Position numbers and translations under genes: made by a program. DNA of 32,000 nucleotides from assembly GCA_019056805.1 (NCBI GenBank), contig DXJG01000009.1, forward strand, positions 186,015 through 218,014, given 5' to 3'. The DNA is from Candidatus Baldrarchaeota archaeon. GTDB lineage: Archaea; Asgardarchaeota; Baldrarchaeia; Baldrarchaeales; DXJG01. Below, in pieces: positions 19,532-23,107 of the stretch. The notes beneath the pieces are model-generated. The model saw only the letters and a program-made list of their open reading frames with translations. It was not told where the DNA came from and did no database searches. Position 1 is the stretch's first letter. Every line of letters starts with the position of its first letter.

Positions 19532-19635
19532 GGGCCCGTGGCCTAGCTGGATATGGCGCCGGCCTGCGGATAAAATTTTAAAATGACTTAGTAGAAAGCC
19601 GGAGATCCCGGGTTCAAATCCCGGCGGGCCCGCCA
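19532..19635 (+). tRNA. tRNA-Arg(GCG) with a 27-nt intron at position 37/38 (19570-19596) and encoded CCA
   Basis: Acceptor GGGCCCG/CGGGCCC, anticodon stem CCGGC/GCCGG, loop CT-GCG-G, T arm CCGGG TTCAAAT CCCGG. BHB central helix CTGC/GTAG with bulges GGA and AAA. Confidence 0.95.
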
Positions 19636-21828: not shown

Positions 21829-23017
21829 ATGACACAAAAAACAACAGTTTCAATAATAAAGGCAGACATAGGTTCACTAGCAGGACACCATGTAGTACAT
21901 CCAGAACTAATTGAACTTGCCAAAAAGGAACTCGAACACGCCAAAAAAGAAGGAATCATAAAAGACTACTACGTATTTAACTGTGGAGACGACCTACAAC
22001 TACTAATGACGCACGACAAAGGAGAAGGAAATTCACAAGTCCACGAACTTGCATGGAACACATTCAAAAAAGCAGCAGAAAAAGCAAGAGAAATGAAACT
22101 CTACGGCGCAGGGCAAGACTTACTAAAAGAAGCATTCTCAGGAAACATACGAGGCATGGGACCAGGAGTAGCAGAACTAGAATTCGAAGAAAGAAAATCA
22201 GACCCAATCCTAGTATTCGCAGCAGATAAAACAGAACCAGGAGCATTCAACCTACCACTATTCAAAGTATTCGCAGACCCCTTCAACACCCCAGGACTCG
22301 TAATAGACCCAAACATGCACGGACCAGACCTAGAACACACAGGATTCAAATTCAAAATACTTGACGTAATAGAAGGAAGAAGCGTAGTCTTAAAAGCACC
22401 AGAAGAAATCTACGACATTCTCGCATTAATAGGTACAACAGGGCACTATGTAATCGAAAAAATATGGAGATACGACGATCTACCAGCAGCATCAGTATCC
22501 ATAACAAGACTAAGCTTGATAGCAGGAAAATATGTGGGCAAACTAGCAGCTATAATGGCTGCTAGGCCTAAAGATGACCCAGTTGCTATCGTACGTGCGC
22601 AACACGGTCTTCCAGCCGTAGGCGAAGTACTCGAAGCTTTTTCATTTCCACACGCCGTCGCAGGTTGGATGCGTGGTAGCCACTACGGGCCCCTAATGCC
22701 TGTAGGATTAAAAGATGCTCGATGCACCAGATTCGACGGCCCCCCAAGAATCGTATGTCTAGGATTCCAAGTATGCAATGGCCATCTAATTGGTCCTTCA
22801 GATATGTTTGACGATCCAGCATTTGACAGAACCAGAATGCTTGCCAACGAAATTGCCGAATATTTCAGAAGACATGGACTCTTCATGCCCCACAGACTCG
22901 GTCCAGATGGGAGAAGAACAATAACAGAATTAAACATGTTCTTCTCCCAGGACTCACGAAATGGAATATACAACGCTACCTCAGGTGCTAGAGAAACTCA
23001 GAGAACGATTCAAGTAA
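21829..23017 (+). CDS. fbp: Fructose-1,6-bisphosphate aldolase/phosphatase (class V); join(21829..22541,22572..22906,22956..23017), 369 aa after removing two introns
   Basis: KADIGS..GHH, GDD, YGAGQDLL, DKTEPGAFN, GWMRGSH and RFDGPP. After splicing, YVGKDDP and HRLGPDEMEYTTLPQVL are restored; stop TAA at 23015-23017. Confidence 0.93.
22542..22571 (+). other. Putative BHB-type mRNA intron 1 of fbp (30 nt, in frame, relaxed motif)
   Basis: GGGC-AA^A-CTAGCAGC-tataatg-GCTGCTAG-GCCT-AA^A. Removal converts YVGK-LAAIMAARPK-DDP to canonical YVGKDDP. Confidence 0.82.
22907..22955 (+). other. Putative BHB mRNA intron 2 of fbp (49 nt, frameshifting, strict BHB)
   Basis: TCG-GTCC-AG^A-TGGGAGAAGAACA-(16 nt)-TGTTCTTCTCCCA-GGAC-TC^A-CGA. 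Removal restores the frame and the conserved C-terminus. Confidence 0.9.
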
Positions 23018-23018
23018 A

Positions 23019-23038
23019 CCATTTTCCTTTTATTTTTC
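23019..23038 (+). terminator. Pyrimidine-rich archaeal terminator candidate for fbp
   Basis: CCATTTTCCTTTTATTTTTC directly follows the spliced-frame stop at 23017. Confidence 0.45.
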
Positions 23039-23107
23039 AATAACTTTACAATACTCTAATTTAATTTTTTATTTTCCCAAGATACTCAATTCCAGAAAAA
23101 TATAAAT

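Follow-up and report, generated by a model that had tools for sequence, protein, structure and literature searches.

The pre-mRNA of cbf5 in Crenarchaeota contains a bulge-helix-bulge (BHB) intron, the splicing of which has been shown experimentally (Watanabe 2002; Yoshinari 2006; Yokobori 2009, PMC2738675). In archaeal tRNA genes, non-canonical introns with relaxed HBh' motifs are cut by the (alpha-beta)2 or epsilon2 forms of the tRNA endonuclease EndA (PMC5829648, PMC3239211), and two reports describe heavily interrupted tRNA genes in Asgard archaea (PMC11291895; bioRxiv 10.64898/2026.10.13.758758). Here we describe a related element in fbp, the gene for fructose-1,6-bisphosphate aldolase/phosphatase, in a 32,000-nt stretch of the Candidatus Baldrarchaeota archaeon contig DXJG01000009.1 (henceforth the window; all positions without a prefix refer to it). 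The gene carries a 30-nt insert on the plus strand (22542-22571, hereafter intron 1) inside the codon of a catalytic lysine, and we consider it very probable that this insert is a BHB intron of the fbp pre-mRNA, excised by an (alpha-beta)2 EndA, with RtcB joining the exons.

Like the cbf5 intron, intron 1 is a short BHB-type intron in a coding sequence that is linked to a hetero-oligomeric EndA and has been gained and lost among close relatives. Unlike cbf5, fbp is a gene of central metabolism and its host is an Asgard archaeon of the Baldrarchaeia type; furthermore, intron 1 interrupts a catalytic codon, breaks no open reading frame (ORF), and has a second intron beside it in the gene and others elsewhere in the genome. 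Splicing, which was established by experiment for cbf5, is predicted from sequence for fbp. A literature search recovered archaeal coding sequences spliced by the tRNA endonuclease only for cbf5. With the relaxed HBh' tRNA introns, intron 1 shares the central helix, a single well-formed bulge beside the intron helix, the absent outer exon helix, and the same need for an enzyme with a Lys-bearing specificity loop; it differs from them in being hosted by an mRNA, which offers no tRNA body to aid docking of the enzyme. A further parallel is provided by the unconventional splicing of the HAC1 and XBP1 mRNAs, a stress-regulated frame switch of eukaryotes in which IRE1 cuts and a tRNA ligase or RtcB joins. 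There too a short mRNA intron is excised by proteins alone at stem-loop sites and the exons are joined by a tRNA ligase, but both the nuclease and the motif are different, and the HAC1/XBP1 switch is regulated by stress. As in the Asgard lineages with interrupted tRNA genes, the present genome is rich in BHB introns and encodes two EndA paralogues; in the passages searched by term, the two reports on those lineages mention introns in tRNA genes only.

An insert within the catalytic motif of fbp

The fbp ORF (21829-23043, plus strand) aligns with the FBP aldolase/phosphatase structure PDB 3R1M with an E-value of 1.7e-158, and in the genome search it gives a full-length match to Pfam PF01950 (FBPase_3; E 4e-164). 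Compared to 3R1M, the Y-V-G-K-D-D motif of the ORF contains exactly 10 extra residues (LAAIMAARPK) between G-K and D-D. In the alignment the structure proceeds from G231 directly to K232-D233-D234 and the equivalent Lys of the window is residue 238, as an earlier note on this DNA had maintained after allowing for six inserted residues upstream. According to the structure papers of 2011, Lys232 is reportedly the Schiff-base lysine, Asp233 and Asp234 are said to bind metal, and Tyr229 and Lys232 to act in the aldolase step. By equivalence to K232 we take Lys238 to be the catalytic Schiff-base lysine. The six upstream residues, PDLEHT (22324-22341), are a real insert with respect to the Sulfolobus enzyme; they are common to the order (PDLEST in G004, a genome of the same order) and constitute an ordinary lineage-specific loop, not an intron.

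The Y-x-x-K-D-D motif of PF01950 becomes contiguous only once 22542-22571 is removed. The FBPase_3 profile then runs uninterrupted, with positions 1-230 falling on exon 1 (21829-22541, which starts at Met1 and ends two bases into the Lys238 codon) and positions 230-340 on exon 2 (22572-22906). The gene is present in a single copy in the host genome (1.92 Mb, 18 contigs, 35% G+C), and neither an Inositol_P-type phosphatase nor a DeoC-type aldolase was found in this 91% complete assembly; fbp is the only fructose-bisphosphate aldolase/phosphatase gene detected in this Asgard archaeon.

Examination of positions 22536-22572 reveals, in order, GGGC, AAA, CTAGCAGC, TATAATG, GCTGCTAG, GCCT and AAA. 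The GGGC of exon 1 (22536-22539) pairs with GCCT (22566-22569), the last four intron bases ahead of the 3' bulge, to form the central helix H, which includes one G-U pair. An AAA bulge stands on either side of this helix (22540-22542 and 22570-22572), and the two bulges are thus on opposite strands, separated by four base pairs. Between the strands of H is the intron hairpin h' (22543-22565), with an 8-bp stem of CTAGCAGC and GCTGCTAG (22543-22550 / 22558-22565) and the 7-nt loop TATAATG (22551-22557). RNAfold of 22516-22592 returns this BHB fold at -31.4 kcal/mol (z -4.8, with 0/200 shuffles as good), leaves the 5' bulge unpaired and predicts a longer stem, of 10 bp, closed by a 3-nt loop. 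Thus, the letters and the fold both bear out the geometry described in the earlier note, as well as its account of the insert as 30 nt long, in frame and free of stop codons. A distant exon-exon helix in the RNAfold structure (GATAGCA/TGCTATC) was dropped because it is kept in neither L069 nor L094, two metagenome contigs that also bear the insert. The exon side has no helix h adjoining the 3' bulge, at most a single U-G pair being available there, and the motif accordingly belongs to the relaxed HBh' class of the bulge-helix-bulge, as the same note had classed it, rather than to the strict hBHBh' form.

Removal of 22542-22571, which corresponds to a cut after nucleotide 2 of each bulge, restores the G-K-D-D found in the solved FBP aldolase/phosphatases and in eight insert-free Baldrarchaeia-type sequences. 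Our strict BHB scan recovers intron 1 in this register. In the host genome, strict 30-nt BHB motifs with a stem of at least 8 bp occur at 3.9e-6 per position and strand, which corresponds to a chance of about 1.6e-5 for such a motif in any of the four registers that are equivalent for a particular indel. A genome-wide scan for strict BHB motifs that are in frame and stop-free gave 108 matches; those inspected other than intron 1 were judged by eye from their translations to be normal conserved coding regions, such as P-type ATPase and NuoH-like motifs, and were rejected. Searches of the genome with blastn-short recovered no further copies of either fbp intron, so nothing points to a repetitive mobile element. 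That the insert is genuine DNA is clear from contigs of three other runs (X2, X3 and X4, two of them from other studies), which contain it with 0 differences and 0 gaps.

In light of these observations, we propose that the exon GGGC of the fbp transcript would pair with GCCU of the intron and thereby place the two AAA bulges on opposite strands next to the stable intron hairpin. A heterotetrameric (alpha-beta)2 EndA would then cut after the second nucleotide of each bulge, at 22541|22542 and 22571|22572, and RtcB would ligate the exons, so that the AAA codon for the Schiff-base lysine is restored beside the two metal-binding aspartates. From the geometry of the motif, the exactness of the indel, the pattern of conservation and the presence of the enzymes, we infer that cleavage and ligation take place in vivo. 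Given that intron 1 is in frame and stop-free, an unspliced mRNA would yield a protein with 10 extra residues within the catalytic K-D-D, which is probably inactive.

The same mRNA would have to lose a second intron (22907-22955, plus strand), a frame-shifting 49-nt element with a canonical BHB (GTCC/AGA/13-bp stem/GGAC/TCA) that is recovered by the strict scan and has a fold z of -5.0. Intron 2 is present in all eight alleles of the genus and absent from G004, and its length in the alleles measured is 49, 34 or 37 nt, in each case 1 mod 3. Homology to 3R1M stops at residue 362, well short of the end of the ORF. Downstream of intron 2, the frame that encodes EMEYTTLPQV has been preserved, the changes there being synonymous; conservation of this frame beyond a frame-shifting element indicates that the fbp mRNA must be spliced there. 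Exon 3 (22956-23017, including the stop codon 23015-23017) gives the spliced reading D-EMEYTTLPQVLEKLRERFK, which matches the C-terminus of P0004 from an intron-free relative.

Conservation of the insert and the candidate splicing enzymes

The 30-nt insert is cleanly absent from the congeners G003 and G001 and from G004, which read GGC|AAR GAT GA at this point, as well as from L070, L071, L098 and all more distant loci of this enzyme family where the motif could be found. It is present at the same site in the metagenome contigs L069 and L094 and in the ENA contig L101. The insert is therefore no singleton but occurs in at least four diverged alleles, whose exon DNA differs by up to 11%; as peptides, the four inserts would read LAAIMAARPK, LAAIIAARPK, LAAALAARPK and LAAKKAARSR. 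In the exon tree, the insert-bearing alleles together with the outgroup are split from the insert-free clade with a support of 1.0, a topology that implies a single gain, after which one precise loss may have occurred. A narrow degenerate-pattern scan of the metagenome contigs returned no inserts at the site, where L069 and L094 read GGG AAA and L069 also TAC; the inserts of both were detected by a protein-based contig scan.

Among the insert-bearing alleles, the ratio of nonsynonymous to synonymous substitution rates (dN/dS) in the exons is 0.02-0.04 at a dS of 0.29-0.53, indicating that the interrupted gene has long been kept functional. Read as codons, the insert shows a proportion of nonsynonymous differences (pN) of 0.14-0.30, versus 0.005-0.02 in the exons. 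Pairing and variable sites were counted over three alleles, namely the window, L069 and L094. Across these, 35/36 pair cells stay paired (12/12 in H and 23/24 in the stem), the changes being one G-C to G-U and one U-U mismatch, while the loop varies at six of its seven positions. Overall, variable sites make up 2/24 of the paired versus 7/13 of the unpaired positions (Fisher p 0.004). The 5' bulge is invariant in all four insert-bearing alleles, and the 3' strand of H, which is GTCT in L094, keeps its pairing through G-U.

The L094 allele is informative regarding the cut sites, as its 3' bulge is AGA and read-through would place Arg rather than Lys before D-D. Removal of 30 nt in the first two registers likewise gives Arg, and the AAA codon for Lys is rebuilt only if the cut follows the second nucleotide of the bulge, which is the canonical position, or the third. 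This behavior favors the canonical BHB cut sites and suggests that selection acts on the spliced product, with the Lys codon split between its second and third bases. The earlier note had held that the spliced product is the same in any register, which is true of the window itself and does not extend to L094.

The host genome encodes two EndA paralogues, both with N- and C-terminal endonuclease domains. The alpha paralogue (L001:1465-2019, minus strand; 184 aa) retains the Tyr/His/Lys triad and aligns over nearly its full length with the alpha subunit of A. pernix (3P1Z_B), with no gap in the loop region; its K39 aligns to A. pernix K44, the Lys of the specificity loop. In the beta paralogue (L002:1474-2010, minus strand; 178 aa), the position of the catalytic His is occupied by Val. 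By their sequences, the two appear to form an (alpha-beta)2-type pair of one catalytic and one structural paralogue, and RtcB is also present in the genome. Published work (PMC5829648) reports that the specificity loop enables EndA to cleave relaxed motifs and that Asgard EndAs possess it. The broad-specificity EndA that the earlier note had said such a motif needs thus has a suitable candidate in this pair, the alpha member of which keeps both the loop and its Lys.

Competing explanations

Several observations weigh against an intron at 22542-22571. As the outer exon helix is missing, cleavage would depend on a broad specificity of the host EndA that is itself predicted. The single mismatch noted above, U-U, falls in the stem of L069, and the alleles compared show no double compensatory change within intron 1. 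Four-fold synonymous sites in the stem are not significantly more conserved than those of the exons (1/5 variable versus 42%; p 0.31), hence stem conservation alone cannot separate constraint on the RNA from constraint on a peptide. No RNA run was listed as containing the gene, and neither RNA reads nor RNA contigs cross the junction; the only RNA run with a small share (X22) covers 21829-22078, and at about 88% identity to the window over that interval it derives from a relative and is uninformative about the junctions. Finally, in none of the four alleles does the insert shift the frame or contain a stop codon, as a retained peptide would also require. The result for the synonymous sites, the absence of RNA across the junction and the intact frame, along with the fact that the databases contain the insert as protein, count in favor of an in-frame insertion that is retained and translated; the enzyme would then tolerate a 10-residue loop between the Lys and the Asp pair, and the resemblance to a BHB would be incidental. 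We regard this as unlikely given that a BHB motif would have to coincide with the indel at the chance estimated above, at a site that falls between adjacent catalytic residues. Moreover, the peptide changes at 7-60 times the rate seen elsewhere in this highly constrained enzyme, read-through in L094 loses the Lys beside D-D, and the same mRNA needs splicing at intron 2 in any case.

Translational bypassing, as in phage T4 gene 60, would have the ribosome take off at the first AAA and land at the second, passing over the hairpin. Three of the four alleles do have identical AAA codons on either side of the insert, with a stable hairpin after the first AAA; however, the landing codon in L094 would be AGA, no stop codon follows the take-off codon, and intron 2 and the inserts in pcm and porG (see below) have BHB geometry without matched codons, making this explanation very improbable. 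An assembly artefact or a recently inactivated pseudogene might be suspected in a metagenome assembly whose insert breaks a catalytic motif. The identical DNA in contigs of three other runs, the insert in three further diverged alleles and the purifying selection on the insert-bearing alleles together exclude this explanation, to which we assign a negligible probability. Excision of intron 1 as a BHB intron is the interpretation that we retain.

One might go further and suppose that removal of intron 1 serves as a post-transcriptional switch, wherein the unspliced, full-length subunit with its disrupted catalytic loop could poison the oligomer, the efficiency of EndA on the relaxed motif would set gluconeogenic capacity, and the lineage would run protein-only mRNA splicing on many housekeeping genes. 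We offer this as speculation and think it improbable.

Annotation of fbp, and BHB introns elsewhere in the genome

As intron 1 leaves the ORF intact, annotation pipelines would raise no alarm and would deposit a wrong protein, one whose active site has gained 10 residues and whose C-terminus, owing to intron 2, is also incorrect. The public fbp proteins of the genus (P0001, P0002 and P0003) are indeed read-through products whose C-termini are wrong because intron 2 is unspliced; P0001 also contains the 10-residue insert. P0001 thus provides an instance of the earlier note's contention that ORF-based annotation cannot see this intron. Such cases represent a kind of annotation error that escapes every check based on reading frame. 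The presence of two EndA-type introns, one of which leaves the ORF intact, in a central-metabolism gene of an Asgard archaeon would be a further indication that EndA and RtcB splice mRNAs as a matter of routine in some relatives of eukaryotes. The 77-nt transcript of 22516-22592 could serve as a simple substrate for probing the substrate range of Asgard EndAs.

A genome-wide BHB scan yielded two further introns in coding sequences outside the window, which, together with intron 2 and the interrupted tRNA genes, make it more likely beforehand that intron 1 is spliced. The gene pcm (protein-L-isoaspartate O-methyltransferase) contains a 31-nt canonical BHB intron (G000:C17:48225-48255, plus strand; L032:526-556) of the form CGCC/ACA/9-bp stem/GGCG/ACA, which splits GQTISAP|HMVA; the PCMT profile is contiguous across the junction (3-59 / 61-208), and relatives G002, G001 and G004 have the intron at the identical site, with both helices showing compensatory changes. 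The gene porG (2-oxoacid:ferredoxin oxidoreductase gamma) contains a 35-nt BHB intron (G000:C6:49473-49507, plus strand; L033:474-508) that splits FFGAE|RRGAP, with the POR profile contiguous across the junction (1-32 / 33-173). G001 and G003 share this intron, with compensatory changes in its stem, and G004 cleanly lacks it. For both genes, the compensatory changes in relatives are double changes. The porG of G004 has a different, 28-nt BHB intron elsewhere in the gene (L041; G004:C56, about 106640-106666, minus strand; CCTC/AAA/GGGTGAGG..CCTCACCC/GGGG/ATT), indicating that intron positions turn over within the order. Most of the scan's matches that would rescue an ORF contain both a ribosome-binding site and a start codon, and were rejected as intergenic hairpins.

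ARAGORN reports only 31 tRNA genes in the genome, calls introns in 22 of them and makes several odd anticodon calls, a pattern that points to many tRNA genes being heavily interrupted and misread by standard tools. Within the window, a tRNA gene at 19532-19632 (plus strand; Rfam 55.7 bits), which find_trnas did not report when run on the window, is identified by the intron mode of ARAGORN as tRNA-Cys(GCA) with a 27-nt intron. Two more G+C-rich strict 30-nt BHB motifs lie outside long ORFs (G000:C5:1042-1071, plus strand, and G000:C9:155013-155042, minus strand) and may be introns of RNA genes; a third strict 30-nt motif (C9:265586-265615) falls in a tRNA-Trp region.
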